Assembly: GCA_035624115.1 (NCBI GenBank)
Contig: DASPSD010000031.1
Span: 25,292 to 89,291, forward strand
Length of the DNA stretch: 64,000 nucleotides
Direction of reading: 5' to 3'
Source of the DNA: Candidatus Sulfotelmatobacter sp.
Lineage (GTDB): Bacteria > Acidobacteriota > Terriglobia > Acidiferrales > UBA7541
In this document: piece after piece, positions 4,548 through 63,624 of the stretch
Numbering within the stretch: position 1 is the stretch's first letter
Layout of the letters: every line of letters begins with the position of its first letter
Made by a program: the position numbers and the translations under genes
Notes under the pieces: model-generated
Told to the model about the DNA's origin: nothing
What the model saw: only the letters and a program-made list of their open reading frames with translations
Databases searched by the model: none

Positions 4548-4732
4548 TGGCTCTGTTGAGATCCTCGCGAATTCGGCTGAGCCCCGGTGCTGGCGCGGGT
4601 TGTACCGGAATTGAAAACAAAGCGGGAGCAAGCTCCCGCACTCCAAAGGTCTCGGAGGCGGCGCGGAGAGTATGGGCAGCGGTTCGGAAATTGGCAGCGC
4701 GGGCACGGCATGCCGTGCCCCTACGAGAAACA
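4548..4732 (+). repeat. RepA repeat, copy 2 (extended form with left and right arms)
   Basis: Core hairpin plus a left arm shared with copy 24054 and a right arm (gggcagcg...ggcagcgcgggcacgg) shared with copies 6476 and 24054. Confidence 0.85.
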
Positions 4733-6370: not shown

Positions 6371-6475
6371 GTGCCTGCTCTCGGGGTTCGAAAGCCATGA
6401 GTGCCGATGCCATTACGGAGACCGACGCGGACACAGGTTTAGCTCAGGTAGTGAACTTGGCTGAAGCTGTGCCTA

Positions 6476-6612
6476 GATTGAGAACAAAGCGGGAGCAAGC
6501 TCCCGCACTCCAAAGATCTCGGAGGCGGTGCCTAGAACTCGGGCAGCGTCGTGGTAAGGGGCAGCGCGGGCACGGTCCGCCGGACTGCCGGTGGATGCCC
6601 CTACAGAGAAAA
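6476..6612 (+). repeat. RepA repeat, copy 3
   Basis: agattgagaacaaagcgggagcaagctcccgcactccaaagatctcgg plus the shared right arm. Confidence 0.85.
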
Positions 6613-10075: not shown

Positions 10076-10185
10076 TGTGTGAGAACTGCGAAATCAGTCC
10101 CTCAGCGGCTGAAGCCGCCCTGAATTTGCAACACTTACGGCACGGCTGAAGCCGTGCCCTGACGGAAATCCCTGGTTCTCACACA
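10076..10185. mobile_element. MITE-like 110-bp element with perfect 11-bp terminal inverted repeats
   Basis: tgtgtgagaac (10076-10086) and gttctcacaca (10175-10185) enclose two RepB-type hairpins (cagcggctgaagccgccctg, ggcacggctgaagccgtgcc). Confidence 0.65.
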
Positions 10186-14902: not shown

Positions 14903-14974
14903 GGGAACTTCAGGGGCTGAAGCCCCAGACATTCGAGATTTCGAATGTCGCGGTTGAAACCGCGACCCACAAAC
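14903..14974 (+). repeat. RepB hairpin repeat (ggggctgaagcccc + cgcggttgaaaccgcg)
   Basis: gggaacttcaggggctgaagcccc...gtcgcggttgaaaccgcgacccacaaa. Homologous copies lie at 20701 and 21721. Confidence 0.8.
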
Positions 14975-18266: not shown

Positions 18267-18332
18267 CCAGGGGTTGAAACCCCTGACCTCCAGATGACTA
18301 TCGGCACGGCTAAAGCCGTGCCCTGACGCAAG
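18267..18332 (+). repeat. RepB-type hairpin pair (aggggttgaaacccct + ggcacggctaaagccgtgcc)
   Basis: Two GC-rich stems with small loops, in the same style as 10076-10185. Confidence 0.7.
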
Positions 18333-19185: not shown

Positions 19186-19237
19186 GGCGCGTTGTCTTCG
19201 GGGGCATCATACGGACCAGGGACACACTGCGTTCCCA

Positions 19238-19296
19238 TCGAAAACAAAGCGGGAGCCCTTCGGCTTCGCTCAGGACAAGCAAGCTCCCGCACTCCA
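19238..19296 (+). repeat. RepA repeat, copy 4, with a second unit nested in the hairpin loop
   Basis: gcgggagc-[ccttcggcttcgctcaggacaagca]-agctcccgcactccaaagg. Confidence 0.8.
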
Positions 19297-19324
19297 AAGG
19301 TCTTAGTCGCGCAGTTTCCTTAGA

Positions 19325-19870: not shown

Positions 19871-19917
19871 TCTTCTCTCCCTTACCATTTGAAATGGACC
19901 TTCACGCGTCAGTTGTG

Positions 19918-20008
19918 CCGACCGAGTCAAGCCTCGGTCGAGTGATTGGCTTTTCGTGCGCTGTCACGGGCGACAAAGCGGCGTCAAGCCGCCGCACTCC
20001 AGAAAAAC
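19918..20008 (+). repeat. RepC double-hairpin repeat, copy 2
   Basis: Near-identical to 2878-2968. Confidence 0.8.
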
Positions 20009-20155
20009 GGAGCCGCCCGAAGCCGCTGACAATTCTCTGCTCACGGCAGGAATGGAGTCAACCTATCGCAAGAGTGCAGCGTCGTCCCCCCGGCTTCTTG
20101 ACGTTTGGGCAGCGTGCGGTCACTATTCTCACTCGGGCAAGCGAGCCGCGAAGCG

Positions 20156-20700: not shown

Positions 20701-20777
20701 GGGAACTTCAGGGGCTGAAGCCCCGGGCGTTTGGGCATCGTAATGTCGCGGTTAAAACCGCGACCCACAAAGCGGGC
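20701..20777 (+). repeat. RepB hairpin repeat
   Basis: gggaacttcaggggctgaagcccc...gtcgcggttaaaaccgcgacccacaaagcggg. Confidence 0.8.
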
Positions 20778-21720: not shown

Positions 21721-21797
21721 GGGAACCTCAGGGGCTGAAGCCCAACGAATAGAAGCGGCTGAATGTCGCGGTTGAAACCGCGACCTACAAAGCGGGT
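21721..21797 (+). repeat. RepB hairpin repeat
   Basis: gggaacctcaggggctgaagccc...gtcgcggttgaaaccgcgacctacaaagcggg. Confidence 0.8.
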
Positions 21798-24053: not shown

Positions 24054-24258
24054 TGGCTCTGTTGAGATCCTCGCGAATTTGGCTCAGCCCCGATTCTGGC
24101 GCGCGTTGTACCGGAATTGAAAACAAAGCGGGAGCCCTTCGACTTCGCTCAGTACAAGCGAGCTTCCCCTGGCTATGCTCGGGGCAGGCCGCACTCCAAA
24201 GGTCTCGCGGGCGGCGCAAAGGAAATGGGCAGCGCTCCGGACAACGGCAGCGCGTGAA
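24054..24258 (+). repeat. RepA repeat, copy 5 (extended arms, doubly nested loop insertion)
   Basis: Left arm matches copy 4548. The loop carries ccttcgacttcgctcagtacaagcgagct plus a further insert before ...gccgcactccaaaggtctcg. Confidence 0.8.
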
Positions 24259-24362
24259 GGGATCGCTCTCTGCATGGCGCATCGCCGGCTGCGATTCGGT
24301 TCATGCGCTCGCACCAGAGGGCGGGTTGCCGGGGTTTGCTGCGGGTGGTAGGATGAAGGGCC

Positions 24363-33187: not shown

Positions 33188-33339
33188 GTTGACTTGCAGC
33201 TGAATGGCCTCAAACGCAAGTCTGCGACCCGATAACGATTTCGTCAAGTAAGGGGAGAGCAGCCCGGCTGGCAGCAGCAGCGGCTTGCTCGAGGTGCGCG
33301 GGTGTGGCACGCTAGCCGCGCCGATTGTGGCAAGCAACC

Positions 33340-34908
33340 ATGACTGAAGACCTCAAGCGTCACGATGGGCTGGAAGAGCTGCGGCGGCGCAGCGCCGAAG
33401 CCGAAGAAGGCGGCGGCAGAGAGCGCCGCGAGCGGCAGCACAAAGAAGGCAAATTGAGCGCGCGGGAGCGCATCGAGCTGCTGCTCGACGAAGGCACATT
33501 CGAGGAGCTCGACAAGTTCGTTCGGCACCGCTGCATCGATTTCGGAATGGAAGAGCAGCGGCCCGCGGGCGACGGCTTCATCACGGGCTTCGGCCGCATT
33601 GACGGGCGGCTCGTTTACGTCTTCGCGCAGGATTTTACCGTGTTCGGCGGCTCGCTTTCGGAAGCCAACGCCTCGAAAATCACGAAAATCATGGACCTGG
33701 CGATCCGCCAGGGCGCGCCGGTCATCGGGTTGAACGATTCCGGCGGAGCGCGGATTCAGGAAGGAGTGATGTCGCTCGCGGGCTACGCAGATATTTTCCT
33801 GCGCAACACGCTCTCAAGCGGCGTGATTCCGCAGATTAGCGCCATCATGGGGCCGTGCGCGGGCGGCGCGGTCTATTCGCCCGCGATCACCGATTTTATT
33901 TTCATGACGCGCGACACTTCCTACATGTTCGTCACCGGCCCGGACGTGATCAAGACGGTCACCCACGAGGAAGTGACCAAGCACGAGCTCGGCGGCGCCA
34001 TGACGCACAACGCCACGAGCGGCGTAGCCCATTTCATTGCCGCCGACGACGCCGAATGCCTGGCAATGATCCGCGAGCTATTGAGCTACATCCCCTCGAA
34101 TAATCTCGAGGACCCGCCGCGCCGCGCAACCTCGGATCCATGGGACCGCGCCAGTCCCGCGTTGAATACTCTCGTGCCAGAGGATCCGCTCAAGCCCTAC
34201 GACATCAAGGACGCGATTCAAGGCGTGGCGGACGACGGCGAATTTTTCGAGGTGCACGAGCACTATGCGAAAAATATCGTGGTGGGATTCGCGCGGCTGG
34301 AAGGGCGTCCCGTGGGAATCGTCGCGAACCAACCGGCGTTTCTCGCAGGTGTGCTCGATATCAACGCGTCGGTGAAAGGCGCTCGGTTCGTCCGCTTCTG
34401 CGACGCCTTCAATATTCCGCTCATCACGTTCGAGGACGTTCCGGGATTCCTGCCCGGAACACAGCAAGAGTTCGGAGGAATTATTCGTCACGGCGCAAAA
34501 TTGCTGTTCGCGTTTGCCGAAGCAACGGTGCCGAAAATTACCGTCATCACGCGCAAAGCCTACGGCGGAGCCTATTGCGTGATGGCTTCCAAACACATCC
34601 GCACCGACATGAATTTCGCGTGGCCGACGGCTGAAATCGCCGTGATGGGTCCCGAAGGCGCGGTGAATATCGTGTACAAGCGCGAGATCGACCGCGCCGC
34701 AGAGGGCGAGCGCGAAAAGTTGCGCCGCGAAAAAATCGAGGACTTCAGGACAAGGTTCGCAAATCCTTACGTGGCCGCCGAGCGCGGCTATATCGACGCG
34801 GTCATCGAGCCTTCGGAAACCCGCGCGAAACTCATCACGGCCTTGCGCTCGCTGGAAACGAAGCGCGACCTCAATCCCCGCAAAAAACACGGCAATATCC
34901 CGCTCTGA
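33340..34908 (+). CDS. pccB: acyl-CoA carboxylase carboxyltransferase (propionyl-CoA carboxylase beta / methylmalonyl-CoA carboxyltransferase 12S)
   Basis: [18 protein letters not shown]...[13 protein letters not shown]...[13 protein letters not shown]...[13 protein letters not shown]...ends KKHGNIPL*. Confidence 0.9.
34845..34908 (+). repeat. direct repeat, left copy (intact 3' end of pccB)
   Basis: 64 nt recur at 41126-41190. The 33-nt identical core is 34855-34887. Confidence 0.85.
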
Positions 34909-35084
34909 AGCCCCTGCTTTCTTCCCCCCAATCTATTTCGAAGCGGGACAGCTCCGATATGAAGCGGCTTCAAAAATGAGAATCCACTAATTTTCTCCCG
35001 CGCAAGGTGAATCTGCCCGGTCTCCCGATTGCTGGATGAACCGCACGAGCCCAAAACGTCCCGGCGGGACCACGGAGTTCCATC

Positions 35085-38051
35085 GTGAGCGATTATCTGG
35101 CGCGGATTACCGGCGCAGGCATTTCGACGGAAGCGAATGAAACGCTCGACCCAAACGATTGGAAGGGCTTTCGCGCGCAGGGACACCGCATGCTCGACGA
35201 TATCCTCGATTACATCGAAACGATTCGCGACCGCCCCGTGTGGCAGCCGATGACAGACGAGGTTCGAGCGCGGATGCGCGGCACTTTTCCGAGCCAGCCA
35301 GCCGATCTCGCCGAAGTCCATGGTGAATTTCTGCGGGATATTCTGCCTTTCGCCGTGGGCAACGTTCATCCGGGTTTCATGGGGTGGGTGCATGGCGGAG
35401 GGACGCCGGCCGGCATGCTGGCGGAGATGCTCGCTGCGGGACTGAACGCCAACGTGGGAGGCCGCGATCAAGCGCCGCTCGAACTCGAGCGTCAAGTGGT
35501 CCGCTGGATGCGCGAGATCTTTGGCTTTCCGGAGGGCGCGACGGGCCTATTTGTCACCGGAACTTCCATGGCGAATTTCATCGCCGTTACGATCGCCCGA
35601 GATGCGGCCCTCGGCTTTGATGTGCGCCGCCGCGGTGTCGCCGCCAAAGAAAAGCAGCTCACCGCTTACGCCTCAACCGGAGTTCACGGCTGCATCGCAA
35701 AGGCCTTGGATCTTTCCGGCATCGGCAGCGATGCGCTGCGGCTGATCCGAACCGACAATCGCTACCGCGTCGATCTCGCCACGCTGGAAAAGGCCATCCG
35801 GTGGGATCGCGATGCCGGGTTGACTCCCTTCCTGGTAGTGGGGACCGCAGGGACGGTGGACACAGGGGCCATCGACGATCTCGCGGGCCTCGCCGATCTA
35901 TGCCAGCGCGAGAAGCTCTGGTTTCACGTGGATGGAGCTTACGGGGCGCTGGCCAGGCTCGCTCCCGATCTCGCTCCAAGACTCGAGGGCATCGAACGCG
36001 CCGATTCACTCGGATTCGATTTTCACAAATGGGGACAAGTGCCCTACGATGCCGGCTTCCTTTTAGTGCGCGATAACGCGCTGCACTTGAACGCTTTCTC
36101 CACCGGCGCGGCATACCTCACGCGGTCCGATCGGGGATTGGCTGCGGGTTCACCCTGGCCCTGCGACTTCGGGCCGGATCTCTCGCGGGGCTTTCGAGCG
36201 CTGAAGACCTGGTTCACTTTGAAGGTTTACGGCACAGACGCGCTGGGAGCGGCGATTTCGCGCACCTGCGAATTAGCGCGCTACCTCGAAAGCCGCATTG
36301 CCGAGACACAGGAGCTCGAGCTGATGGCTCCCGTGGAACTCAATATCGTCTGTTTCCGTTACCGGGCGGAGGAGCCGGACCGCGTCAACGAAAAAATTAT
36401 CATCGGCCTGCAAGAGTCCGGGATCGTTGCGCCGTCTTCCACGGTGATCGGAGGGCGAGTGGCGATTCGAGCAGCAATCGTCAACCATCGGACAGGCCGG
36501 GCGGAGATCGATGCGCTGGTGCAAAATACCCTCTCTCTGGGCCGCTCTCTCCAATACACTCTGCTGCAAGGAAAGGCCGCGCAGCAGACCGCGGAGTTTG
36601 ATCTTCCGGCGGATTCGAAAACAGCCTTGCAGACGGTGGAGCAACAGTTGGTGTCGCAGCCGGGCTCTGTCGCCCTGCGGTTCCTGCGCGCCGGGATCCT
36701 CGAAAAAATGGGCCGGAAGGCGGAAGCCAGGAAGGCCTATATTGACTTGCTCCGCCTCGAGCCATCTCATCTAGGCGCGCTGAACCATCTCGGAAAACTT
36801 CTGGCCGCTGCCGGAAAGAAAATTGCGGCGCGGACGGTCTATTCCGAAGCGATTGCGCGGCATCCCGATGACCCCATGAGCCGCGTAAATTTTGCCGCCC
36901 TTCTAATAGAGGCCGGGGAGCCCGAGAAAGCTCGCGAGCACCTGGAGCACGCCCTGAAAATTGATTCCACGTGCCGGCTCGCCCATGCCGGCTTAGGGTT
37001 CGCGCTTGCGGACCTGGGAGATCCGGAGGGTGCTTCCGAGCACCGGCAAATCGCCTATCGCGGGCACTGCGTGATACCAGTGGAGTATTGCGGCGAGCAG
37101 CCGCCGATCACGGTCTTGGAGCTGGTCACCACCACCGGAGGGGGCGTCCGGGTGGAGAGCTTTTTGAGCGAGGGCATGTTCCAAAAATACCTCGTCGCCA
37201 CGGAGTTCTACGACTCGAGCACGACCTTGCCGCCTCATCAACTCGTAGTCAACGCCATCGGGGATGCCGATACGGCTCGGGCCGCACTGGACGGCGCCGA
37301 AATTCTGCTCCGCTATACAACCGCGCCTGTAATTAATCCGCCGGCAGCGGTCCTCGGGACGGGCCGTTGCGATGTTGCAAGGCGCCTTTCCGGGTTGCCA
37401 GGCGTGATTACTCCGCGGACTTTAATCTTTTCGCGCGAATCACTCGCCGGATCCGACGCCCGCACAATGCTCGATCGTCATGGATTCGAGTTTCCTCTTC
37501 TGCTGCGAACGCCCGGCTTTCACGGAGGCGAACACTTTCTGCGAGTGGAAAGTTTCGATGAACTTCCTGCGGCGCTTCAAGGGCTTCCGGGCCGTGATCT
37601 AAACGTGATCCAGTACCTCGATGCGCGCGGGGCTGACGGAAAGTGGCGCAAGTACCGCGTCATGATGATCGATGGACGGCTCTATCCGCTGCACGTGGCA
37701 ATCTCGCGCCATTGGAAAATCCACTATTTCAGCGCCGAGATGGCAGACAATGCGGAGCACCGCGCTGAGGACGCCAAGTTCCTCGAGGGCATGGCCGGCG
37801 TGCTTGGGCCCCGCGCCCTGACGGCACTCGAGCGAATTCAAAATATCCTCGGGCTCGATTATGGCGGCATTGATTTTGGTTTGAACGAATCCGGCGATAT
37901 CCTGCTCTTCGAAGCAAACGCCACGATGGCCGTTGTTCCATCCGACGCAGACTCCCGATGGGACTATCGCAATCCTACGGTGGAACGAATTAATCAAGCT
38001 GTGTTGCGGATGTTGATTGCGAGGGCAGGGGTGAACAACGAAGCTCGATGA
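35085..38051 (+). CDS. fusion protein: group II PLP-dependent amino-acid decarboxylase + TPR repeats + ATP-grasp-like ligase domain
   Basis: aa 1 to ~495 form a complete Pyridoxal_deC-type domain (HPGFMGW, TGTSMANF, HVDGAYG, PLP-Lys motif SLGFDFHKWG). aa ~530-680 are TPR (AEARKAYIDLLRLEPSH...). aa ~690-988 are ATP-grasp-like (FPLLLRTPGFHGG...WRKYRVMMIDGRLYP...LDYGGIDFGLNESGDILLFEANATM). Confidence 0.8.
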   Translation: MSDYLARITGAGISTEANETLDPNDWKGFRAQGHRMLDDILDYIETIRDRPVWQPMTDEVRARMRGTFPSQPADLAEVHGEFLRDILPFAVGNVHPGFMGWVHGGGTPAGMLAEMLAAGLNANVGGRDQAPLELERQVVRWMREIFGFPEGATGLFVTGTSMANFIAVTIARDAALGFDVRRRGVAAKEKQLTAYASTGVHGCIAKALDLSGIGSDALRLIRTDNRYRVDLATLEKAIRWDRDAGLTPFLVVGTAGTVDTGAIDDLAGLADLCQREKLWFHVDGAYGALARLAPDLAPRLEGIERADSLGFDFHKWGQVPYDAGFLLVRDNALHLNAFSTGAAYLTRSDRGLAAGSPWPCDFGPDLSRGFRALKTWFTLKVYGTDALGAAISRTCELARYLESRIAETQELELMAPVELNIVCFRYRAEEPDRVNEKIIIGLQESGIVAPSSTVIGGRVAIRAAIVNHRTGRAEIDALVQNTLSLGRSLQYTLLQGKAAQQTAEFDLPADSKTALQTVEQQLVSQPGSVALRFLRAGILEKMGRKAEARKAYIDLLRLEPSHLGALNHLGKLLAAAGKKIAARTVYSEAIARHPDDPMSRVNFAALLIEAGEPEKAREHLEHALKIDSTCRLAHAGLGFALADLGDPEGASEHRQIAYRGHCVIPVEYCGEQPPITVLELVTTTGGGVRVESFLSEGMFQKYLVATEFYDSSTTLPPHQLVVNAIGDADTARAALDGAEILLRYTTAPVINPPAAVLGTGRCDVARRLSGLPGVITPRTLIFSRESLAGSDARTMLDRHGFEFPLLLRTPGFHGGEHFLRVESFDELPAALQGLPGRDLNVIQYLDARGADGKWRKYRVMMIDGRLYPLHVAISRHWKIHYFSAEMADNAEHRAEDAKFLEGMAGVLGPRALTALERIQNILGLDYGGIDFGLNESGDILLFEANATMAVVPSDADSRWDYRNPTVERINQAVLRMLIARAGVNNEAR

Positions 38052-38078
38052 GTATTTCGTCTTGGCGGTCACCGCCAT

Positions 38079-39461
38079 TTATTTGTTTGTGCCCGACCGG
38101 ACCCGAGGCGCCGCTGCGGGGGCGCGGAATAAGTTGCAGGCTTTGGTAACCGCCGCCTGTGTACGAAGCTCCCTGGCTGGAATTTCCAGGTTCGCCCGCG
38201 TCAGGGCCAAATCCCTCTCGGCTGCTCTTTTGCGGAACCCGCCGCCTGTGATGTGAAGGAGCACATGGGATCCTGGGATGATTCTGTTGGACCTGACTGC
38301 CTGCATCAGCGCGGCGAGCGCAACCCCAGCGGCCGGGTCTAGATCAATCTCCTCGCATTCTTCAAAAAGCCGCATGGCCCGAAGAACTTCATTATTTCTG
38401 ACCCCGAACAGATCGCCTTGGCTTTCCTTCAGGACGTCAAACAAACCACCGCCAATTGCATAGGGCGGCCTTTGATTCGAAAGAACGGAGGCCAGAATTC
38501 GTCGCGTCAAGGCTCTGGCTCGGCTCCGTTCCATGCGGATGAATTCGCGCCGGCCTCTCCTCCAGGAATCCAGAATGGGGGTGAAGGGCAAGTTCTGGCT
38601 GAGCATCAGCCGGGGGAGCGTGCGACTGAATCGTGAATTTTGGGTCAATCGTTTTGCGGCCACATGGGCCGCGATGGCTCCAGCGCCGCTGCTAATGGCT
38701 TGAAAATAGTAATCCGGCAGGGCGCCGATGGTTTCCACGGCGCTCAGCATCGCGGCTCCCAGCCCGTCGCGGCGCCCCACGTTTCGGACACCGCCCTCAC
38801 GCCGGAATCCTTCGCGCCGCGAAACAGCGTCCCCCAAGGCAATCGCGTCAGAATAGTCCGCATTCCCTGAGAGAGAGACGATTTTCACAGAGGGGCCAAG
38901 CGGGCGGGTGAACTGCATTGCCTTCATACCGCTCGCGGGAACGACAATCAGGCAGCGAATGCCGTTTTCAGAGCAGATTCGAGCGAAGGCTGCTGCGGAA
39001 TTCCCAGCCGATGCCACCACCAGAACTTCTGAGCCGCTCTGGGGAATTCGAGACAGAACCCCGTAAGCTTCCAGCTCCTTGAAAGTGGCGGTCTCGAGCC
39101 TGGCGCCTCTTTCCGGCCAATATCCGCTGAAGGTGATCCAAAGATTCGGAAGGCGGAGAATCGAGCTGAGACGCGCGCTTTTGTAAGTGACGGGAATAGC
39201 GGCTCCGGCCAACAGGTTCGCTGCAGGCAACCAACAGCGGTATCGGTACAAACCATCTTGTGTCTCATCGCATACGAGCGTGCGAGAAGAATACAGGGTG
39301 GTCAGCAAGGAAGCGGAGTGCGAGCGGGGACATTCGAGCATCCAACCATCGTCCGTGAATCGACAGCCGCAGGCCGGGCAAGCGAGCTGATAGTGCGCTG
39401 CCTTCTCGCTGGGGCGTTCCCGTTTGGGGACATCGAGATCCCGAATCGGGCTTTCTTTCAC
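38079..39461 (-). CDS. threonine synthase-like fold-type II PLP enzyme, resembling the cysteate synthase subgroup
   Basis: N-terminal Cys-rich segment (YQLACPACGCRF...LECPRSH). PLP-Lys context ETATFKELEA. VVASAGNSAAAFARICSENGIRCLIVVP. Subgroup assignment comes from memory of family motifs and is not verified. Confidence 0.65.
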   Translation of the reverse strand: MKESPIRDLDVPKRERPSEKAAHYQLACPACGCRFTDDGWMLECPRSHSASLLTTLYSSRTLVCDETQDGLYRYRCWLPAANLLAGAAIPVTYKSARLSSILRLPNLWITFSGYWPERGARLETATFKELEAYGVLSRIPQSGSEVLVVASAGNSAAAFARICSENGIRCLIVVPASGMKAMQFTRPLGPSVKIVSLSGNADYSDAIALGDAVSRREGFRREGGVRNVGRRDGLGAAMLSAVETIGALPDYYFQAISSGAGAIAAHVAAKRLTQNSRFSRTLPRLMLSQNLPFTPILDSWRRGRREFIRMERSRARALTRRILASVLSNQRPPYAIGGGLFDVLKESQGDLFGVRNNEVLRAMRLFEECEEIDLDPAAGVALAALMQAVRSNRIIPGSHVLLHITGGGFRKRAAERDLALTRANLEIPARELRTQAAVTKACNLFRAPAAAPRVRSGTNK

Positions 39462-39688
39462 TCTTCAGGAACCTCATTGCGGGCATCTGGCGGCACTGCG
39501 ATTTAATTATTTTTTTCTTAGAATTGCTCGCCGCGCGCGCGGCGTCCGGACGGACTCTTGCAATCGAGGTTCCCCAGCCTGCCTCCGCAATGGATGGCGG
39601 AACAGAGTGGGGCCAGTCCGAGTGGCACAGCGATTGCAAATCTATCCCGGCGGCCGGGTCGGCCGAACCGGCCATTCAAGATAGACCG

Positions 39689-41116
39689 ATGAAATCCAAT
39701 TCAAGCTTGGTAGATCAGAGATTTCGGCGGGCCCTCGCCCTCCAAAAGCAGGGCCACACCGTGGAGGCTAGAAACGAATACCTGAAGGTGCTTGAAATCG
39801 ATCCTTCGCACGGGCCAGCGCTCAACAACGTTGGGAGCCTCTTGCTCGCCGCGGGAAACCTTCCAGCCGCGCGAATCGCGTATGCCGAGGCCGTCGCCCG
39901 GCATCCGAATGATCCCGTGAGCCGGTCGAATTTAGGGAATCTGCTGCGCGAAGAAGGTGAGCTGGCCGCCGCACGCGAGCACTATGAGCACGCTCTACGC
40001 GTGGATCCGAATCTCGTGCAGGCGCATGAGGGTTTGTCCTATGTGCTGGCGGACCTGGGAGATGAAGAGCGCGCCGCATGGCACCGCCGCAAAGCCTTTG
40101 AACATCGTTTCCTGATCGCCTTGCCCTATCTCGGAAAAGGCAAGGGAATATCGGTGCTGCAGCTCGTGTCGTCCAACGGCGGCAACGTGCGAACGCGGGA
40201 ATTTCTCGATGAGCGCGTGTTCCGGACCTTTGTTGTCCTTCCAGAGTTCTACGATCGAAAGGTTGCCTTGCCTCCGCATCAAATGGTATTCAATGCCATC
40301 GGTGACGCCGACGTCGCAGCAGCGGCGCTCACGGCTGCCGAGCCTTTTCTCGCTCTCACTCAAGCACCCGTCATCAACCCGCCCTCGGCCGTGCTCGCTA
40401 CGCGCCGGCTCGACATATCCAGGCGCCTTTCGGGATTGCCGGGGGTGGTTACCCCCAGAACGGTCGCCCTGCCGCGAGAGATTCTCACTGCTCCCGACGC
40501 CGAGGCCGCGCTCGCCGCACAGGGATTCCGATTCCCCGTCCTATTGCGAACGCCCGGTTTCCACACCGGCGACCATTTTGTGCGGGCCAAAATTCCCGAT
40601 GAGCTTCCTGCCGCGCTCGCGCAGCTTCCCGGGCAACAATTGCTGGCAATCCAGTACCTCGAGGCACGCGGGACCGATGAAAAGTGGCGCAAGTACCGAG
40701 TGATGATGATCGATGGGAAGCTCTACCCGCTGCACGTGGCCCTCTCCTCGAATTGGAAGGTTCACTATTTCAGCTCCGAAATGGCGGATAATTCCCTTGG
40801 CCGCGCCGAGGAAGCCCAGTTCCTGGCCAATATGGCCGGTGTCCTCGGGCCGCGCGTCTTGGACGCTCTCACGCGGATTCAGAAAACTCTCGGCCTCGAT
40901 TACGGTGGAATCGATTTCGGATTGAACCGGGACGGCGACCTGGTGCTCTTCGAGGCGAATGCCACGATGGTGGTCCTTTCCCCCGGCGCGGACCCCCGCT
41001 GGGACTACCGTCGCACTGCGGTGGAGCAAATTTACCAAGCGGTGGCGAACATGCTGCTGGCCAGAGCGAACGCCGGTGCGCAGCACACGAATTGGAGTTC
41101 GGCCGGTGCGGATTGA
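39689..41116 (+). CDS. TPR + ATP-grasp-like protein, paralog of the C-terminal half of 35085..38051
   Basis: Aligns along its whole length with aa ~520-988 of the fusion protein (e.g. WRKYRVMMIDGKLYPLHVA, LDYGGIDFGLNRDGDLVLFEANATM). The start could also be upstream (track ORF starts at 39524). Confidence 0.8.
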   Translation: MKSNSSLVDQRFRRALALQKQGHTVEARNEYLKVLEIDPSHGPALNNVGSLLLAAGNLPAARIAYAEAVARHPNDPVSRSNLGNLLREEGELAAAREHYEHALRVDPNLVQAHEGLSYVLADLGDEERAAWHRRKAFEHRFLIALPYLGKGKGISVLQLVSSNGGNVRTREFLDERVFRTFVVLPEFYDRKVALPPHQMVFNAIGDADVAAAALTAAEPFLALTQAPVINPPSAVLATRRLDISRRLSGLPGVVTPRTVALPREILTAPDAEAALAAQGFRFPVLLRTPGFHTGDHFVRAKIPDELPAALAQLPGQQLLAIQYLEARGTDEKWRKYRVMMIDGKLYPLHVALSSNWKVHYFSSEMADNSLGRAEEAQFLANMAGVLGPRVLDALTRIQKTLGLDYGGIDFGLNRDGDLVLFEANATMVVLSPGADPRWDYRRTAVEQIYQAVANMLLARANAGAQHTNWSSAGAD

Positions 41117-41125
41117 GCCTTGTTG

Positions 41126-41190
41126 GCGCTTGCTTGAAACGAAGCGCGACCTCAATCCCCGCAAAAAAAAACGGCAATATCCTGATCTAG
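41126..41190 (+). repeat. direct repeat, right copy (degenerate pccB 3' remnant)
   Basis: Core 41136-41168 is identical to 34855-34887. An extra A and substitutions destroy the KKHGNIPL reading. Confidence 0.85.
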
Positions 41191-41214
41191 GTATTTCTGC
41201 TTCTGCTTGCCGCC

Positions 41215-43092
41215 TCAGGCGCGCTTGCCGACGTACCAAGGCGCACTCAGCGTAAAAATGCGCTGGTTCCCGCGGGAGAGCAACACCCATTCCAAGAGCC
41301 GGCCACGCTGATTGTGAAAGAAATATTCATACCATCTGTCTTCCACAAGCTCGGGGATCACCACGATGATCGTGCGGGAAGGGTTTTTCGCTGAAAGGTC
41401 GAGAACATACTGCACGATGGGAATGATGACGAAGCGATAGGGCGAGGGGAGGATTTCCAGCGTTGGCGGGACCGCGCCCGCCGCGCGGAACGGCCCGGCC
41501 ACGTACCGCTCCCAATCCATTTGCAGCAATTCCGATTGCTCGGCAGGATCCACGTGAAGGGCGATCACTTCCGGCGAAAGCCGCGCGGCAAACTCAATCC
41601 CCTGGCGGGTGATGCTGCTCCAGCGGTCGATTGCAATGATGGCAATCGGATGCTCGTTGGCGTTGGCAGGGTGCGCTGGAACCATGCAAGTGGTTTCCAT
41701 CTTCACCATGTGATAGTGGCGGCGGACAATCGTGAAGAAGAACATCGTAAACGGAATGAAAAGCAGAGTAATCCACGCGCCTTCGGCGAACTTCGCCACG
41801 AGCACGACGATCACGGTGACACCGGTGACGAACGCGCCGAGTCCATTCACGATTGCGCTCTTCTCCCAGTGCGGGACGCGGTTTTTCCACCAGTGCATCA
41901 CCATGCCGGCCTGCGAAAGCGTGAAAGCGAGAAATGCGCCGATGGCGAAAAGCGGGATGAGCCGGTCGGTGACGCCGCCGAACGCGATCAGAAGACTGCC
42001 CGTCAGGAAAGCCAGAACGACGATGCCATAGCTATAAACCAGCCGCCGGCCGCGATACCCGAACACATGAGGAAGGTAATTATTCTGCGCGATGGCGCGG
42101 CAGAGGCGCGGAAAATCCGCAAAGGCCGTGTTCGCCGAAAGCGATAGAACGGCAAGGATCGAGGCGATGGTGAGGTAGTAGAAGTAGCCTTTGCCGAAAA
42201 CGGCGGCAACAAGCATCGAGAGAAGGCTCTGATACCCGGGCTGGCCGGGATCCGTGGCGGCGATGCCATATGCCTTCACGAGATAGGAAATTCCAGCCAG
42301 CAGCACGCCGAGGAGAAAAATAATCACGCTCAGGGTGCGCTGCGCATTCTTGACGGTGGGCTCGCGAAAGGCCTTCACGCCGTTGCTCACCGCCTCGACG
42401 CCGGTCAAAGCCGTGCAGCCGCTTGAGAAAACTTTGAGCAACAGCCAGAATGTCACGGCCTGAGTCACCGGCGGCGGAGGCGGAGGCACAGTCACGGGCA
42501 CGGGATGCCCGCCGGCCTGTATGACGCGGAGGATGCCCGCACCGATCGTAATCAAAAGCGTGGCGACAAAGAGAAAAGTGGGGATCGAAAAGGCTAACCC
42601 GACTTCGCGCACGCCGCGAAGGTTGAAGATCGTGATGATGATCAGGATGATCACGCACAGCGAAACTGTATAGGGCTGCAACGACGGCACCGCCGAAATT
42701 AGTGCGCCCACCCCTGCGGAAATTCCCACGGCCGCCGTGAGGATGTAATCGGCAAGGAGTGCCGCCGCCGCAAGCAAGCTCGCGCTCGCGCCAAGATTGA
42801 ATCGCGCTACGGTATAAGATCCACCGCCCGAGGGGTAAGCCGCAATCGTCTGGCGATAGGAAAAGTACACGATCACTAGCAGCGTAATGATCGCCGCGCT
42901 GACGGGGATCAAGTAGCGCACGCCAAGTGCGCCCAAGGGAATCAGGAGGCTCAAAGCGGCTTCCGGACCGTAGGCGGCGGAACTGAGCGCATCGAGGCCG
43001 AAAATGGGGATGCCTTGCGTCGCTCCAATCTGTTCCGCGCGTTCGTCGCTCGTCTTGATAGGCTTGCCGACAACCATGTCAAGAATGTTCAT
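41215..43092 (-). CDS. APC-superfamily transporter with C-terminal cytoplasmic domain
   Basis: GIPIFGLDALSSAAYGPEAAL..., about 12 TM helices, plus a ~200-aa soluble C-terminal domain. Confidence 0.8.
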   Translation of the reverse strand: MNILDMVVGKPIKTSDERAEQIGATQGIPIFGLDALSSAAYGPEAALSLLIPLGALGVRYLIPVSAAIITLLVIVYFSYRQTIAAYPSGGGSYTVARFNLGASASLLAAAALLADYILTAAVGISAGVGALISAVPSLQPYTVSLCVIILIIITIFNLRGVREVGLAFSIPTFLFVATLLITIGAGILRVIQAGGHPVPVTVPPPPPPVTQAVTFWLLLKVFSSGCTALTGVEAVSNGVKAFREPTVKNAQRTLSVIIFLLGVLLAGISYLVKAYGIAATDPGQPGYQSLLSMLVAAVFGKGYFYYLTIASILAVLSLSANTAFADFPRLCRAIAQNNYLPHVFGYRGRRLVYSYGIVVLAFLTGSLLIAFGGVTDRLIPLFAIGAFLAFTLSQAGMVMHWWKNRVPHWEKSAIVNGLGAFVTGVTVIVVLVAKFAEGAWITLLFIPFTMFFFTIVRRHYHMVKMETTCMVPAHPANANEHPIAIIAIDRWSSITRQGIEFAARLSPEVIALHVDPAEQSELLQMDWERYVAGPFRAAGAVPPTLEILPSPYRFVIIPIVQYVLDLSAKNPSRTIIVVIPELVEDRWYEYFFHNQRGRLLEWVLLSRGNQRIFTLSAPWYVGKRA

Positions 43093-43338: not shown

Positions 43339-44100
43339 TCAGGTTTTCGTCGCGCGCTTTTTCCTGTGTGAATGCGCCCGAGCCCTGTGCGCAAGAGGCA
43401 AAATTTGGACACCACCCTTGCCGCCGATGAATACCTGCGAGGCAAATCCAAGAAAGAGTCCGTGCTCCATCACACCGACCACGTGGTCGAGGTGGTGTGC
43501 GATTTCTTTGGGGTCGGCCATCGGACCGAAGGCGCAATCAATGATGTAGTGGCCGCCGTCGGTGATGAACGGCTTCTCGTTCGTACCAAAGCGAAGCTTG
43601 GGATGCGCGCCTAGCCCGACCAATTTTCGCTCCGTGGCCTGCCAGCCAAAGGGCGCCACTTCGACAGGGACGGAGACGAGCGAGCCCAGACGTGCGACGA
43701 CCTTGCTTTCGTCCGCCACCACAATCATGCGCTTGCTGGTAGCAGCGACGATTTTTTCCCGCAGGAGCGCCCCGCCATGACCCTTGATGAGAAACAGCGT
43801 TCGCCGCTCGACTTCGTCCGCGCCGTCGATCGTCAGATCGATCTCGGAACATTCGCCGAGCGTAGCCAGCGGGATGCCAAGGCTGCGCGCCTGTTCGGCA
43901 GTGCGTTCGGATGTCGGGATGCCGGTGAATCGAAGCCGCTCTTCGTGGAATCGTCGGCCCAGGGCGGCAACGGCAAATGCGGCCGTTGATCCCGTGCCGA
44001 GGCCAACCACCATTCCGCTCTCGATAAGTTTCGCGGCCGCCTCAGCCGCAGCTCGTTTCCACTGATCCTGTTCCGAAGCGCTCATCGCCTGGCTCACCAT
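43339..44100 (-). CDS. rpiA: ribose-5-phosphate isomerase A
   Basis: VVGLGTGSTAAF...IDLTIDGADEV...LIKGHGGALLREKIVA. Confidence 0.9.
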   Translation of the reverse strand: MVSQAMSASEQDQWKRAAAEAAAKLIESGMVVGLGTGSTAAFAVAALGRRFHEERLRFTGIPTSERTAEQARSLGIPLATLGECSEIDLTIDGADEVERRTLFLIKGHGGALLREKIVAATSKRMIVVADESKVVARLGSLVSVPVEVAPFGWQATERKLVGLGAHPKLRFGTNEKPFITDGGHYIIDCAFGPMADPKEIAHHLDHVVGVMEHGLFLGFASQVFIGGKGGVQILPLAHRARAHSHRKKRATKT

Positions 44101-44210
44101 AGCTCGTGCCCACCCGCGGGCATCATATCCGGTCAATTGCGGGTTGCCAACCCTGGCCGGGCGGGTGCGAATGCCGCGTGCTAAGATGGCGCCCGCGAGT
44201 GCGAGCCAGA

Positions 44211-45755
44211 ATGTTCCGCAAAATTTTGATAGCCAACCGGGGAGAGATCGCGGTGCGCATTATGCGTGCCTGCCGCGAGCTGGGAATACGTTCGGTGGGA
44301 GTGTTCAGCGATGTGGACCGGGCTGCGCTGCATGTGCGCCTCGCGGACGAGGCGTATCCAATTGGCCCCGCGCCCTCGCGTGAGAGCTACCTTGTAATTG
44401 AAAAAATTCTCGGCGTTGCAAAGCGAGCCGGGGCCGACGCCATTCATCCGGGCTACGGCTTCCTTGCCGAAAATCCGGCGCTCCCGCGCGCCTGCGAAGC
44501 CGCTGGCGTGACGTTCATTGGGCCTGCGCCTGAAGCAATGGAAAAACTGGGAGCGAAGACCGCGGCGCGCCATCTGGCGCGCGCGGCTAAAGTGCCGACG
44601 GTTCCGGGAACTCTCGACCCGATTGAAAAAATTGAGGACGTGGCGGACATCGCCCGGAAAACAGGCTACCCGATTTTGCTGAAGGCCGTGGCGGGCGGCG
44701 GTGGAAAAGGGATGCGGCTCGTCGAGAGTGAAGGCCAGCTGGCCGCGGCGTGGCGCGATGCCTCTTCAGAAGCACAAAACGCATTCGGTGACGGACGCCT
44801 CTATCTTGAAAAGTACCTTTCGAGGCCGAGGCACGTCGAGATTCAGGTGCTCGCGGATCAGCACGGGAAAGTGATCCATCTGGGCGAGCGCGAATGTTCC
44901 GTGCAGCGGCGCCATCAGAAAGTGATTGAGGAATCGCCTTCGCCGGTGATGACACCCGAACTTAGGCAAGCAATGGGCGAAGCCGCCGTCAAGCTTGCGC
45001 GCGCGGGAAACTACACGAACGCGGGCACCGTTGAATTTCTCGTGGATGAGCACCGAAATTTCTATTTTCTGGAAATGAATACCCGCCTTCAGGTGGAGCA
45101 TCCTGTGACAGAGATGGTGACGTCGCTTGATCTGGTGAAGCTCCAAATTCATATCGCCGCGGGCGAGCCGCTGCCGATTTCGCAACAGGATGTTGCGCTG
45201 CGCGGTCACGCCATCGAATGCCGGATTTATGCGGAAGACCCGGACAACAACTTCTTTCCCTGTCCGGGGACGGTTGGTGCGCGGCGAGTGCCTGGTGGCC
45301 CCTCGGTGCGGCTTGATGATGGAGTCTATCCCCGCTGGACAATCCCGAACGAGTACGATCCGCTGCTCGGAAAGTTGATTGCCTGGGGAGCGGACCGCCC
45401 CGAGGCAATCGCGCGGCTTCAGAGAGCGCTTGCGGAATACTATGCGGGGGGCATCAAGACGAATATTTCGCTCTTCCAGCGAATCCTCGCTGCGCCTGAT
45501 TTTCAGAAAGGCGAGATCCACACCCGCTGGCTCGATGATTTCCTCCGCGAGGAGCAGGATCGGCGAAGTGCGAGGGCGGAAGTCGAGACAAGCGCGGCGC
45601 ACGTAAGGGAAGCCGCAATCTTGGCTGCGGCGTTGTGGCACCGATCGATGAATGGTCACGATGGGAATCAACCGGGAAACGCGGCGACAGGATCCCCATC
45701 ACGCTGGAAGACGGAAGCGCGGCGCGAGCAGGTGGAGCGCGACCCGCAGCCGTGA
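44211..45755 (+). CDS. accC: biotin carboxylase subunit of an acyl-CoA carboxylase
   Basis: MFRKILIANRGEIAVRIMRACRELGI...HPGYGFLAEN...GGGGKGMR...EMNTRLQVEHPVTE. No BCCP domain in this ORF. Confidence 0.9.
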   Translation: MFRKILIANRGEIAVRIMRACRELGIRSVGVFSDVDRAALHVRLADEAYPIGPAPSRESYLVIEKILGVAKRAGADAIHPGYGFLAENPALPRACEAAGVTFIGPAPEAMEKLGAKTAARHLARAAKVPTVPGTLDPIEKIEDVADIARKTGYPILLKAVAGGGGKGMRLVESEGQLAAAWRDASSEAQNAFGDGRLYLEKYLSRPRHVEIQVLADQHGKVIHLGERECSVQRRHQKVIEESPSPVMTPELRQAMGEAAVKLARAGNYTNAGTVEFLVDEHRNFYFLEMNTRLQVEHPVTEMVTSLDLVKLQIHIAAGEPLPISQQDVALRGHAIECRIYAEDPDNNFFPCPGTVGARRVPGGPSVRLDDGVYPRWTIPNEYDPLLGKLIAWGADRPEAIARLQRALAEYYAGGIKTNISLFQRILAAPDFQKGEIHTRWLDDFLREEQDRRSARAEVETSAAHVREAAILAAALWHRSMNGHDGNQPGNAATGSPSRWKTEARREQVERDPQP

Positions 45756-45794
45756 CACGCGGAGGAGAGAATTTAGAGTGAGGACGCGGACGAA

Positions 45795-46292
45795 GTGAAG
45801 CTCGAAATCGAACTCGACGGGAAGGCACATTCGGTGGAGATCACCGGGGCAGGAAAAGAACTTCGGTGCGTGATCGATGGAAAACAGGTGAATGCAGACG
45901 CAATCGAACTCTCGCCCGGAATTTATTCCATTCTGGCCGGCGGCAAATCGCTCGAGGCACGGGTAGAAACGGTTGGTGGAGATCTGCGCGTAAATGTGAG
46001 TGGACGTGAGTTTCGTGCCGCCATCAGAGATCCACGCCACTGGAGCCGGAATCGCGGCGCCGCGCTCGAAGCCGAAGGCCGGCAGCAAGTGGTGGCGCCG
46101 ATGCCGGGGAAAATTATCCGGCTGCTGGTGGGAGCGGGCGAGCACGTCGAGGCGCGGCAGGGTTTGCTTGTGGTGGAAGCCATGAAGATGCAAAACGAAA
46201 TTCGGTCGCCGAAATCGGGCACGGTCGAGCGGCTTTTAGTCAAAGAGGGCCAGGCCGTCAACGCCGGCGAAGCCCTCGCTGTGATTGCCTAG
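45795..46292 (+). CDS. biotin carboxyl carrier (biotinyl/lipoyl domain) protein
   Basis: C-terminal VAPMPGKIIRLLV...LLVVEAMKMQNEIRSPKSGTV (AMKM biotinylation motif). Confidence 0.85.
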   Translation: MKLEIELDGKAHSVEITGAGKELRCVIDGKQVNADAIELSPGIYSILAGGKSLEARVETVGGDLRVNVSGREFRAAIRDPRHWSRNRGAALEAEGRQQVVAPMPGKIIRLLVGAGEHVEARQGLLVVEAMKMQNEIRSPKSGTVERLLVKEGQAVNAGEALAVIA

Positions 46293-46425: not shown

Positions 46426-46899
46426 ATGTCGAATCCCGTCAGAGCTATACCGGAAGGCTATCATTCGGTGACCCCGTCGCTCACTTGCAAGGATGCGGCG
46501 CGCGCCATCGAGTTCTACAGGCAGGCATTCGGAGCGCAGGAGTTGTTTCGCATGCCGTCGCCGGACGGAAGGATTGCGCATGCTGAAATCATGATCGGCG
46601 ATTCGCACATCATGGTGAATGATGAGATGGGCCCCGGAGCGACTGCGCCCTCCGGGTCGCCGGGAGTTTACCTGTTCCTCTACGTCGAAAATGCCGACGC
46701 GCATTTCAACCGCGCCGTCGCCGGCGGCGCCAAAGTGGATATGCCGCTCGAAAACATGTTCTGGGGCGATCGCTTCGGCCGCATTACGGATCCCTTCGGG
46801 CATCAGTGGGGCATCGCTACTCACGTGGAAGATGTGACGCCGCAGGAGATGCAGCGGAGAGCTTCGGCGTTTTTTGCAAAGGCGGCGGGGCACAGCTGA
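46426..46899 (+). CDS. VOC/glyoxalase-family protein (PhnB-like)
   Basis: SVTPSLTCKDAARAIEFYRQAFGA...HAEIMIGDSHIMVNDE...FWGDRFGRITDPFGHQWGIA. Confidence 0.85.
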   Translation: MSNPVRAIPEGYHSVTPSLTCKDAARAIEFYRQAFGAQELFRMPSPDGRIAHAEIMIGDSHIMVNDEMGPGATAPSGSPGVYLFLYVENADAHFNRAVAGGAKVDMPLENMFWGDRFGRITDPFGHQWGIATHVEDVTPQEMQRRASAFFAKAAGHS

Positions 46900-61155: not shown

Positions 61156-61194
61156 GGGCGTGTAGCTCAGCTGGGAGAGCACCTGCTTTGCAAG
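61156..61194 (+). pseudogene. 5' half of tRNA-Ala(UGC), interrupted after the anticodon loop
   Basis: GGGCGTG-TA-GCTC-AGCTGGGA-GAGC-A-CCTGC-TTTGCAA-G. I found no T-arm or 3' acceptor strand (CACGCCC) downstream in the window. Confidence 0.7.
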
Positions 61195-61294
61195 TAAGCG
61201 GGTTAAATCACATAAGTGCCGCATCTGGTGTCGCTTGCGCGGACTCGCGCGGTGCGACCAACCTCTTGAGTTGGACTGAAGTTGGACCGAAAGT
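61194..61294 (+). repeat. 101-nt element, copy A (abuts the tRNA-Ala fragment)
   Basis: GTAAGCGGGTTAAATCAC...GTTGGACCGAAAGT. By hand alignment, 13 mismatches and no gaps against 63524-63624. Confidence 0.8.
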
Positions 61295-63523: not shown

Positions 63524-63624
63524 GTAAGCAGGTTAAATCATACAAGTTCCGCATCTGGCGTCGCTTACACGGAGCCGCGCGGTGCAACCAAACTCTTGAA
63601 TTGGACTGACGTTGGACCGAAAGT
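63524..63624 (+). repeat. 101-nt element, copy B
   Basis: GTAAGCAGGTTAAATCAT...GTTGGACCGAAAGT, in direct orientation relative to copy A. Confidence 0.8.

Follow-up and report, generated by a model that had tools for sequence, protein, structure and literature searches.

A three-gene segment between two copies of the pccB 3' end in Candidatus Sulfotelmatobacter, probably the scar of an old insertion

Homology-facilitated illegitimate recombination and Campbell-type single-crossover insertion need no dedicated recombinase: one homologous anchor imports DNA from a relative. They typically lead to replacements or deletions, and not to a duplication of the end of the anchor. Prophage e14 is flanked by icd and by the C-terminal pseudogene icdC (PMC13626634, citing Hill et al. 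1989). Cis-mobilizable elements (CIMEs) are integrase-less segments of 1.2-13 kb, flanked by attachment (att) sites, that lie at the 3' ends of housekeeping genes; in streptococci they are decayed derivatives of ICEs (integrative and conjugative elements) or IMEs (integrative and mobilizable elements), and the genes whose 3' ends hold their att sites are fda, rpsI, rpmG and rplL (PMC7563491). Here we analyze a locus that shares features with these systems. It lies in a 64,000-nt stretch of Candidatus Sulfotelmatobacter sp. DNA (contig DASPSD010000031.1, positions 25,292 to 89,291; hereafter the window), in which the 3' end of a pccB-like gene, encoding an acyl-CoA carboxyltransferase beta subunit, recurs as a direct repeat on the far side of three further genes. 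We conclude that one old insertion, by now fixed, probably left this arrangement as its fossil scar.

The repeated pccB 3' end and the segment it brackets

The gene order across the locus is TonB-like (-), pccB-like (+), a fusion of a pyridoxal phosphate (PLP)-dependent decarboxylase with tetratricopeptide repeats (TPR) and an ATP-grasp domain (+), cysteate synthase (-), a TPR/ATP-grasp gene (+), an APC permease (-), rpiA (-), and biotin carboxylase with the biotin carboxyl carrier protein (BCCP) (+). The target gene, pccB, occupies 33340..34908 on the + strand; its product matches Pfam Carboxyl_trans at 682 bits and the NCBIfam mmdA/PccB-type subfamily at 824 bits, under the cutoff of 998.8. 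The reading frame is open from a TTG at 33325, gene callers use 33340 (522 aa), and we took the call from the conspecific contig L090. The protein is 76-90% identical in amino acid sequence to those of 80 Acidobacteriota relatives, which are uncultured and mostly Candidatus Acidiferrales, and a protein 100% identical to the product of the TPR/ATP-grasp gene is deposited under Candidatus Sulfotelmatobacter sp.

The pccB gene ends in ...CTGGAAACGAAGCGCGACCTCAATCCCCGCAAAAAACACGGCAATATCCCGCTCTGA at 34908. Local alignment set the limits of the repeat at 34845-34906 = 41126-41188, with 57 of 62 positions identical and one 1-nt gap, an extra A in an A-run. Within these limits, a 33-nt core, GAAACGAAGCGCGACCTCAATCCCCGCAAAAAA, is uninterrupted and occurs in the window only at 34855-34887 and 41136-41168. 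When up to 3 mismatches were allowed, the core again had 2 matches in the window and none in 100 shuffles, and the longest direct repeat in 150 third-order Markov simulations of the 18-kb region was never above 19 nt. Extension of the repeat past 34845-34906 was not significant on either side (left p=0.10, right p=0.27); a GCCTTG match with a 4-nt indel to the left was tried as an extension and was not supported. The proximal copy (34845..34906, + strand) is the functional 3' end of pccB, and the peptide it encodes equals the family consensus. The distal copy (41126..41188, + strand) is a pseudo-3' end that matches only the pccB 3' ends of relatives, and it starts 9 nt after the stop codon of the TPR/ATP-grasp gene at 41116. 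These results bear out what an earlier note, made from the sequence of this stretch, had described: the recurrence of the pccB end, its unbroken 33-nt core, a distance of about 10 nt from the preceding stop codon, and a distal copy that no longer encodes KKHGNIPL. The same note had reckoned with a core dispersed throughout the genome; the core is no dispersed repeat, with two copies in 64 kb.

The structure is the same in five independent conspecific assemblies (L081 and L090-L093, from ENA, JGI and Logan), which align without gaps at 99.6-100% identity and show no variation inside either copy of the repeat; it is thus not an assembly artefact. We found no copies of the repeat among the dispersed repeat families of the window, which are unrelated sequences. 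Repetitive extragenic palindromic (REP) or miniature inverted-repeat transposable element (MITE) sequences are present in many copies, intergenic and palindromic; here there are two copies, one of them coding.

Comparison with relatives confirms that the segment between the repeats is a real insertion. In a sister species (contig L174, ~88% nucleotide identity), pccB (+) is followed after 45 nt by a gene for a 148-aa glyoxalase (-), after a further 10 nt by the APC permease gene (-), and then by rpiA. The alignment with L174, at 87%, ends exactly on the final base of the pccB stop codon (34908); it resumes, at 88.5%, exactly on the first plus-strand base of the APC stop codon (41215), so that the two stop codons lie 6306 nt apart in the window versus 502 nt in the sister species. 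The site that the earlier note had predicted, with pccB next to the APC gene, is therefore found nearly empty, with the glyoxalase gene between. The APC-family permease (41215..43092, - strand, 625 aa; Pfam AA_permease_2) is the native right-hand neighbour, outside the insertion; its homologues across Acidiferrales/Sulfotelmatobacter are 82-95% identical and 625 aa long in almost all matches, and the closest non-self homologue (95% amino acid identity) is the one on L174. The 24-nt spacer between the distal copy and the APC stop codon (41191..41214) can be read as the original convergent intergenic spacer of pccB and APC.

The order pccB, rpiA, accC and BCCP, with a variable spacer of 0-5 kb after pccB, is kept in 80 related species (rpiA is absent in some); none of them carries any of the three cassette genes, or the APC gene, within 10 kb of pccB. 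No second pccB 3' end was found in these ~80 relatives or in L174, and the L174 contig holds no trace of the cassette. A tree of APC identity has the form ((window, L174), L175), L176. The glyoxalase-fold gene (148 aa, with its own ribosome-binding site) lies 10 nt after APC both in L174 (2312-2758) and in L175 (2042-2488), where the two genes probably form an operon. Because L175 also carries the glyoxalase gene after APC, the simplest history is one in which the lineage of the window lost the glyoxalase gene and gained the cassette.

Both edges of the segment can be placed closely. On the left, the sequence is homologous to other genomes' decarboxylase loci from 34969-34976 onward (~110 nt upstream of the start codon), which leaves a unique junction spacer of 60 nt (34909..34968) with no similarity to any fetched sequence and no BLAST matches. 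The left edge of the imported DNA lies either in 34909..34968 or within the proximal repeat. On the right, 9 nt separate the TPR/ATP-grasp gene from the repeat; the C-terminal tail of this gene is full-length, as in its 74% homologue on contig L170, which indicates that the 3' end of the gene is intact. The cassette is in this way delimited to within 60 nt on the left and 9 nt on the right.

The segment is native-like in composition. Its GC content is 0.603 versus 0.599, GC at third codon positions is within the range of neighbouring genes, and in tetranucleotide distance it stands at the median, 46% of windows of equal size being more deviant; the deviation in GC and tetranucleotides for which the earlier note had proposed a check did not appear. 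Nor were the three genes, whose co-occurrence elsewhere the note had suggested looking for, together in any other fetched locus. We read the structure as a fossil, not a functioning mobile element; it shows no sign of present mobility.

Origin, age and possible routes of the insertion

The two copies of the repeat are unequal in their state of preservation. The proximal copy encodes the consensus RKKHGNIPL*, as does L174. Read in the pccB frame, the distal copy is frameshifted in the A-run and then continues CCT GAT CTA G in place of CCG CTC TGA, with the loss of KKHGNIPL*. It is the distal copy alone that differs from L174 and the family, by TCG>TTG (Ser>Leu), CAC>AAA(+A) with the frameshift, CCG>CTG (Pro>Leu), CTC>ATC (Leu>Ile) and TGA>TAG; the exception is the third position of one Leu codon, which differs in all three sequences (proximal, distal and L174). 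Since the distal copy carries all the damaging changes and adjoins APC, the former neighbour of pccB, these data indicate that it is the displaced original end of pccB and that the proximal copy is its replacement. In addition, the homology between the copies ends at the pccB stop codon to within 2 nt, as would be expected if the incoming copy matched pccB only in coding sequence.

We therefore favour, as probable, a single old insertion, now fixed, whose course may have been as follows. In the ancestral state, pccB and the APC permease gene were close convergent neighbours, as they still are in L174. The incoming DNA would have carried a pccB 3' end of its own and recombined with the chromosome inside that stretch, such that the incoming end (34845-34906) replaced the old one and pccB was kept intact. 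The displaced original end (41126-41188) would have been left at the far side, where it has presumably decayed neutrally. Loss of the glyoxalase gene would have been a separate deletion.

Of 63 columns, 6-8 differ between the remnant and the functional copy, and third codon positions are 27-33% divergent between the window and L174. These two values place the event near the split from L174; we estimate that the insertion is old, of the order of that split. Such an age fits the identical conspecific assemblies and the native-like composition.

Several observations weigh against this reading. A perfect 33-nt core beside 6-8 changes is mildly unexpected under purely neutral decay (p ~0.03-0.12). 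A donor arrangement, with the cassette directly after pccB and no remnant, was not found, which also speaks against a homology-driven route. There is no mosaic or donor-derived 3' tract in pccB: L174 is nearest in most 180-nt segments, including the last two, and the nearest neighbour does not switch, so any donor must have been very close. No integrase or transposase domain was found in the three enclosed genes, their neighbours or 30 further open reading frames of the window, and the segment, whose intergenic gaps are 176, 27, 128 and 98 nt, holds no relic of a recombinase and no space for one (largest gap 176 nt). In no other fetched genome did the pccB 3' end serve as an insertion site with duplication. 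The trio of genes is never together elsewhere: the fusion occurs alone (L082, L086, L087, L089) or beside the TPR/ATP-grasp gene only (L170). Finally, the polarity of the change depends on one sister contig plus parsimony.

Two routes could have led to such an insertion; they are about equally likely, and the data do not tell them apart. One is a tyrosine- or serine-recombinase event, its module since lost or acting in trans, that left a CIME-like remnant; we regard this as a serious candidate, held tentatively. The geometry of the repeats and a core better conserved than its arms (p ~0.03-0.12) argue for it, and the lack of a relic, of space for a right arm and of recurrent use of the site argues against it, as does the native-like composition. 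The other, to which we lend comparable and equally provisional weight, is RecA-dependent Campbell-type or homology-facilitated illegitimate recombination with a very close relative that had the cassette just downstream of pccB. This route needs no recombinase, and it is favoured by the native-like DNA, by homology that ends at the stop codon and by the locus being a gene-flux hotspot in relatives; against it, duplication is not its usual outcome. The earlier note had read the repeats as an attL/attR or duplicative-insertion scar. Insertion and a replacement-type geometry are upheld, but no recombinase or mobile element was identified, and an att origin is now one of two comparably likely routes.

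An integrase elsewhere among the relatives at first sight bears on the site-specific route. In L009, a 506-aa tyrosine integrase is encoded 166 nt downstream of pccB, and we rejected it as evidence of an att site in pccB: a tRNA-Asn(GTT) gene lies between the two. Related integrases were near pccB in 0 of 75 loci, and abutted tRNA-Asn in 7 of the 11 loci checked for tRNAs; the L009 enzyme is a tRNA-Asn integrase and is uninformative on pccB as an attachment site. This family of ~500-aa tyrosine integrases (L009 11683-13294; L097-L115), from soil Acidobacteriota metagenomes, lies 20-40 nt from tRNA-Asn(GTT) in those 7 of 11 loci and in L009, and its many truncated copies suggest frequent decay. 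The 64-kb window itself has no tRNA, in line with the earlier statement that no integrase, transposase or tRNA lies inside the segment.

Among the alternatives to an incoming pccB end, the one that survives best, although we consider it unlikely, is duplication in situ during the capture of a segment of the same genome, through fill-in of a staggered double-strand break or a switch of replication template. The result would in effect be a 62-bp target-site duplication. Native-like composition, clade-typical cargo and the absence of a recombinase suit this account, as does the spacer between pccB and rpiA, a hotspot of gene content in relatives; a weak hint of a similar scar in L174, where a stretch resembling the APC 3' end lies beside pccB on the far side of the glyoxalase gene, points the same way. 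The account does not, however, predict that the repeat should end on its right so close (within 2 nt) to the pccB stop codon, for which we estimate a chance of ~5%. Moreover, 62 bp is far longer than the duplications that known prokaryotic transposases make, the boundaries of the segment lack terminal inverted repeats, and the hint in L174 is post hoc and weak (p ~0.02). A transposon or insertion sequence in the strict sense fares no better: the segment has no transposase and no terminal inverted repeats, and the duplication measures 62 nt versus 2-15 bp.

The stretch in question is the reverse complement of L174 4030-4055, in the spacer after pccB, which matches window 41208-41232, the end of the spacer plus the APC 3' end, at 19 of 25 positions. 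The match, a post hoc find, has p ~0.007 by shuffling and ~0.02 against actual sequence of the window. Insertion of the glyoxalase gene might have left it behind as an APC 3'-end remnant, which would make it another scar of this kind at the junction. If so, the pccB/APC junction would record two independent insertions, each duplicating the 3' end of the adjoining gene (62 nt of pccB in the window and ~25 nt of APC in L174), and Acidobacteriota would have an integrase-independent or trans-acting mode of cassette insertion that spares flanking genes through long 3'-end duplications, the repeats later allowing precise loss of the insert. We offer this as a conjecture with little probability behind it. 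Among other 3'-end duplications sought in the pccB-downstream region of 69 relatives, we found only a REP- or terminator-like 29-nt repeat after two stop codons, in L077.

More doubtful than duplication in situ is a still-mobilizable, att-flanked island of the CIME or IME kind, with the 33-nt cores as working attL and attR for an integrase that another part of the genome, or an incoming element, would encode. An exact core between diverged arms, better conserved than the rest of the remnant (p ~0.03-0.12), is what such an island might show, and CIMEs are reportedly common, with metabolic cargo (PMC7563491). Nevertheless, no cognate integrase or element was found. The exact 26-nt core had 0 matches in the viral_contigs and metagenome_contigs collections, by a search for exact matches only whose metagenome scan was of low power, as it missed L091. 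(L091 is JGI contig Ga0187782_10002259, which contains the core yet is absent from the metagenome_contigs scan; that collection is incomplete for JGI contigs.) The five conspecific assemblies show no presence/absence polymorphism at the locus, the pccB end is unused in 80 relatives, and the 9 nt between gene 3 and the repeat leave no space for a recombinase arm region. Excision through the core would give pccB a frameshifted C-terminus; because recombination across the 33 nt today would join pccB to that end, the cassette is effectively locked in.

It is also very unlikely that the cassette and repeat are ancestral to the clade of the window and L174 and were lost in L174 by recombination between the repeats, with no insertion in the lineage of the window. 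Direct repeats of 62 nt can mediate precise deletion, and a single sister contig is available. This history, however, needs three events (gain, loss in L174 and loss of the glyoxalase gene in the window) versus two. APC-glyoxalase is found also in L175, the outgroup by APC identity, and L174 retains no trace of either the cassette or a second pccB end. With 80 relatives lacking the cassette, an earlier insertion would still be needed.

Just as improbable is a distal copy kept for a function, for instance as a regulatory RNA, or as a terminator or stabilizer of the two convergent transcripts, TPR/ATP-grasp and APC. The copy does lie between two convergent stop codons, its core is perfectly conserved, and an 8-bp stem (GGAUUGAG/CUCAAUCC) plus an inner stem is possible across the junction. 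Folding z-scores of -1.15 and -0.98 are nevertheless not significant, there is no terminator-like match and no Rfam match at this place, and no such element lies downstream of the APC gene in relatives. Separately, we observed that the last 8 nt of the TPR/ATP-grasp gene (GGATTGAG, stop codon included) are complementary to CTCAATCC in the core, a possible stem-loop that would span the right junction (window 41110-41160), with a folding energy that is not significant (z = -1.15).

Next to no probability attaches to chance, to membership of a dispersed family or to faulty assembly as an explanation of the repeat, in favour of which we found nothing, given zero matches expected by simulation and shuffling, two copies only in 64 kb where the real dispersed families differ in sequence, and five independent ENA, JGI and Logan assemblies of identical structure.

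Cargo genes and other features of the window

The first cassette gene (35085..38051, + strand) encodes a 988-aa protein in which a group II PLP-dependent decarboxylase is fused to TPR and, at the C-terminus, an ATP-grasp domain (Pfam Pyridoxal_deC, 9e-66, and TPR families). Its nearest PDB matches are aromatic amino-acid decarboxylases (4obu, 4e-71). The fusion has >1300 full-length homologues in Acidobacteriota, including Terriglobales, Tunturiibacter and Terracidiphilus, all uncharacterized; identity is 63-76% among the top 120 matches, and the nearest (75-76%, Acidiferrales) stand alone in unrelated neighbourhoods. Variants of the family include stand-alone TPR/ATP-grasp paralogues and versions of ~880 aa. 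The architecture of the fusion suggests decarboxylation followed by ATP-dependent ligation of the amine, possibly to a protein partner bound by the TPR region.

Upstream of this gene, a conserved leader of ~110 nt (34969..35084, + strand) accompanies the decarboxylase, with ~76% nucleotide identity to the upstream regions in L082, L086, L087 and L089. The leader is conserved over five loci in otherwise unrelated neighbourhoods and has the invariant blocks TGAGAATCCACT(C/A)ATTTTC and CGGTC.C..GATTGCT, the first of which is an ATGAG-N6-CTCAT inverted repeat in relatives. As positions 34969-35084 have no Rfam match and no covariation support, the leader is more probably a promoter or operator than an RNA element.

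The second cassette gene (38079..39461, - strand) encodes a cysteate synthase of 460 aa, assigned by NCBIfam TIGR03844 (424.7 bits, above the cutoff of 324.9) and by PDB 9k3c, 'Cysteate synthase' (E=3.9e-111). Genes 1 and 2 are convergent, and the space between them holds a GC-rich hairpin (38063..38077) that resembles a bidirectional terminator, by consensus match only. We considered a taurine pathway made up of cysteate synthase and the decarboxylase; it is weakened by the decarboxylase domain, which is nearer to aromatic decarboxylases (4e-71) than to cysteine-sulfinate decarboxylase (~1e-41). Our literature search found nothing linking cysteate synthase to Acidobacteria, and the Sulfotelmatobacter paper gives only the absence of cuyA (cysteate sulfo-lyase) among the organosulfur genes sought.

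The third cassette gene (39590..41116, + strand; 508 aa as called, with a frame open from 39524) encodes a TPR and ATP-grasp protein, recognized by TPR families and by an AlphaFold model. At the sequence level, the ATP-grasp label comes from weak matches. The model, of the residues encoded by 40121-41113, is confident and bears the label out, with a pLDDT of 88.3 and a pTM of 0.87; its top Foldseek matches are D-Ala-D-Ala ligases (Ddl) and RimK (E ~1e-11 to 1e-10, TM 0.5-0.6); the C-terminal domains of genes 1 and 3 are thus predicted to have the ATP-grasp fold. The C-terminal ATP-grasp halves of genes 1 and 3 are paralogous, with 75% nucleotide identity over 300 nt (37608-37907 versus 40649-40948).

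On the short contig L170 (2-2941), the decarboxylase fusion and a TPR/ATP-grasp gene are adjacent on one strand, without cysteate synthase. This arrangement suggests that cysteate synthase, on the opposite strand between the two, may have been added to an older gene pair. No other fetched locus contained cysteate synthase. The closest homologues of the cassette genes, stand-alone TPR/ATP-grasp homologues included, occur singly at unrelated chromosomal loci, as ordinary Acidobacteriota genes; seen together nowhere else, the trio is not a recurrent mobile unit.

To the right of the APC gene, rpiA (43339-44100, - strand; NCBIfam rpiA, 269 bits) is followed by the biotin carboxylase gene accC (44211-45755, + strand; NCBIfam accC, 629-669 bits) and the BCCP gene (45795-46292, + strand; BCCP matches). 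The order pccB ... rpiA - accC - BCCP, of which 43339..46292 is the right flank, is kept in most Acidiferrales relatives. After BCCP comes a 157-aa glyoxalase-family gene (~46426-46899), different from the glyoxalase of L174 and L175. In the relatives (L001-L060), the most common occupant of the interval from pccB to rpiA/accC is a TENA/PQQC/haem-oxygenase-like gene of 231-257 aa, present at 27 loci and missing from the window. Other occupants are DUF2207, AraC, DUF1223, CsgG-like and unannotated 600-800-aa genes, a DDE transposase (L055 11948-13351), and tRNA-Asn with an integrase. The interval is empty in L020, L022 and L035, with rpiA at 50 nt, and in L033 and L043, with accC at 3-58 nt.

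Elsewhere, the window contains dispersed intergenic repeat families of 35-115 nt and 63-100% identity, some with hairpin palindromes such as GGGGCTGAAGCCCC and GTCGCGGTT.AAACCGCGAC, which look like REP- or MITE-like elements of the host genome. One family is found at 1807-1921, 4548-4715, 6468-6582, 19237-19303 and 24054-24261, and another at 14903-14973, 20701-20771 and 21721-21791; three more have two members each, at 2874-2982 and 19914-20023, at 10133-10167 and 18297-18331, and at 61194-61294 and 63524-63624. A perfect 19-nt inverted repeat between the interior of pccB (34286-34304) and the TPR/ATP-grasp gene (39859-39877) was set aside as probably due to chance (p ~0.05), as its arms are conserved coding sequence and the similarity does not extend further.

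Significance and comparison with known systems

The pccB locus is a known kind of scar in a new example, ordinary but cleanly documented. As a natural example it is clean: an uncultured acidobacterium of peat and soil gained genes at the end of a conserved, essential-looking carboxylase gene, and comparison with a sister species places both breakpoints to the nucleotide. The case shows how two tightly packed convergent genes can receive a biosynthetic cassette between them with neither damaged, and how the scar, while the displaced end decays, comes to lock the cassette in. In Acidobacteriota, where few mobile elements are recognized, surveys of gene flux could use as a testable marker the 3'-end remnants of genes that lie at convergent junctions. 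The cargo, cysteate synthase and two TPR/ATP-grasp ligases, one of them fused to a PLP decarboxylase, may outweigh the scar in biological interest; the host lineage is known for its sulfur metabolism. Most worth following are this uncharacterized cargo and the weak hint of a second 3'-end remnant in L174.

Among described systems, prophage e14 (and phage 21) in icd of E. coli K-12 has the same geometry: the 3' end on the side of the element completes the gene, the displaced C-terminal fragment stays behind as a pseudogene (icdC), and direct repeats bracket the insert. However, e14 has an integrase, an excisionase and phage genes, and it still excises, giving a functional chimeric icd, whereas the pccB segment has no recombinase, phage or conjugation genes, a shorter repeat and a frameshifted distal copy.

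CIMEs resemble the pccB segment in being integrase-less, in their metabolic and transport cargo, and in their att-type direct repeats at the 3' end of a housekeeping gene. An element of this kind would retain both att sites after losing all recombination and transfer genes; the pccB segment lacks such genes and has an intact core, but its distal copy has diverged outside that core, and the two copies are at most candidate att sites. CIMEs differ in that they are recognized through related ICEs or IMEs that share the att site and integrase, often in tandem; for the pccB segment we found no cognate element and no recurrent use of the site, and its right 'arm' is at most 9 nt.

Homology-facilitated or Campbell-type insertion, with pccB as the anchor, explains both the native-like composition and the end of homology at the stop codon, and the flanks beyond are unrelated, as on such a route; it differs in that neither a donor arrangement nor a mosaic pccB tract was detected here. 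Finally, the locus is like known hotspots of gene flux in that the interval from pccB to rpiA/accC holds different genes in different relatives. Unlike those relatives, in which the flanking gene ends are not duplicated, the window is the only case with a visible scar at the junction.

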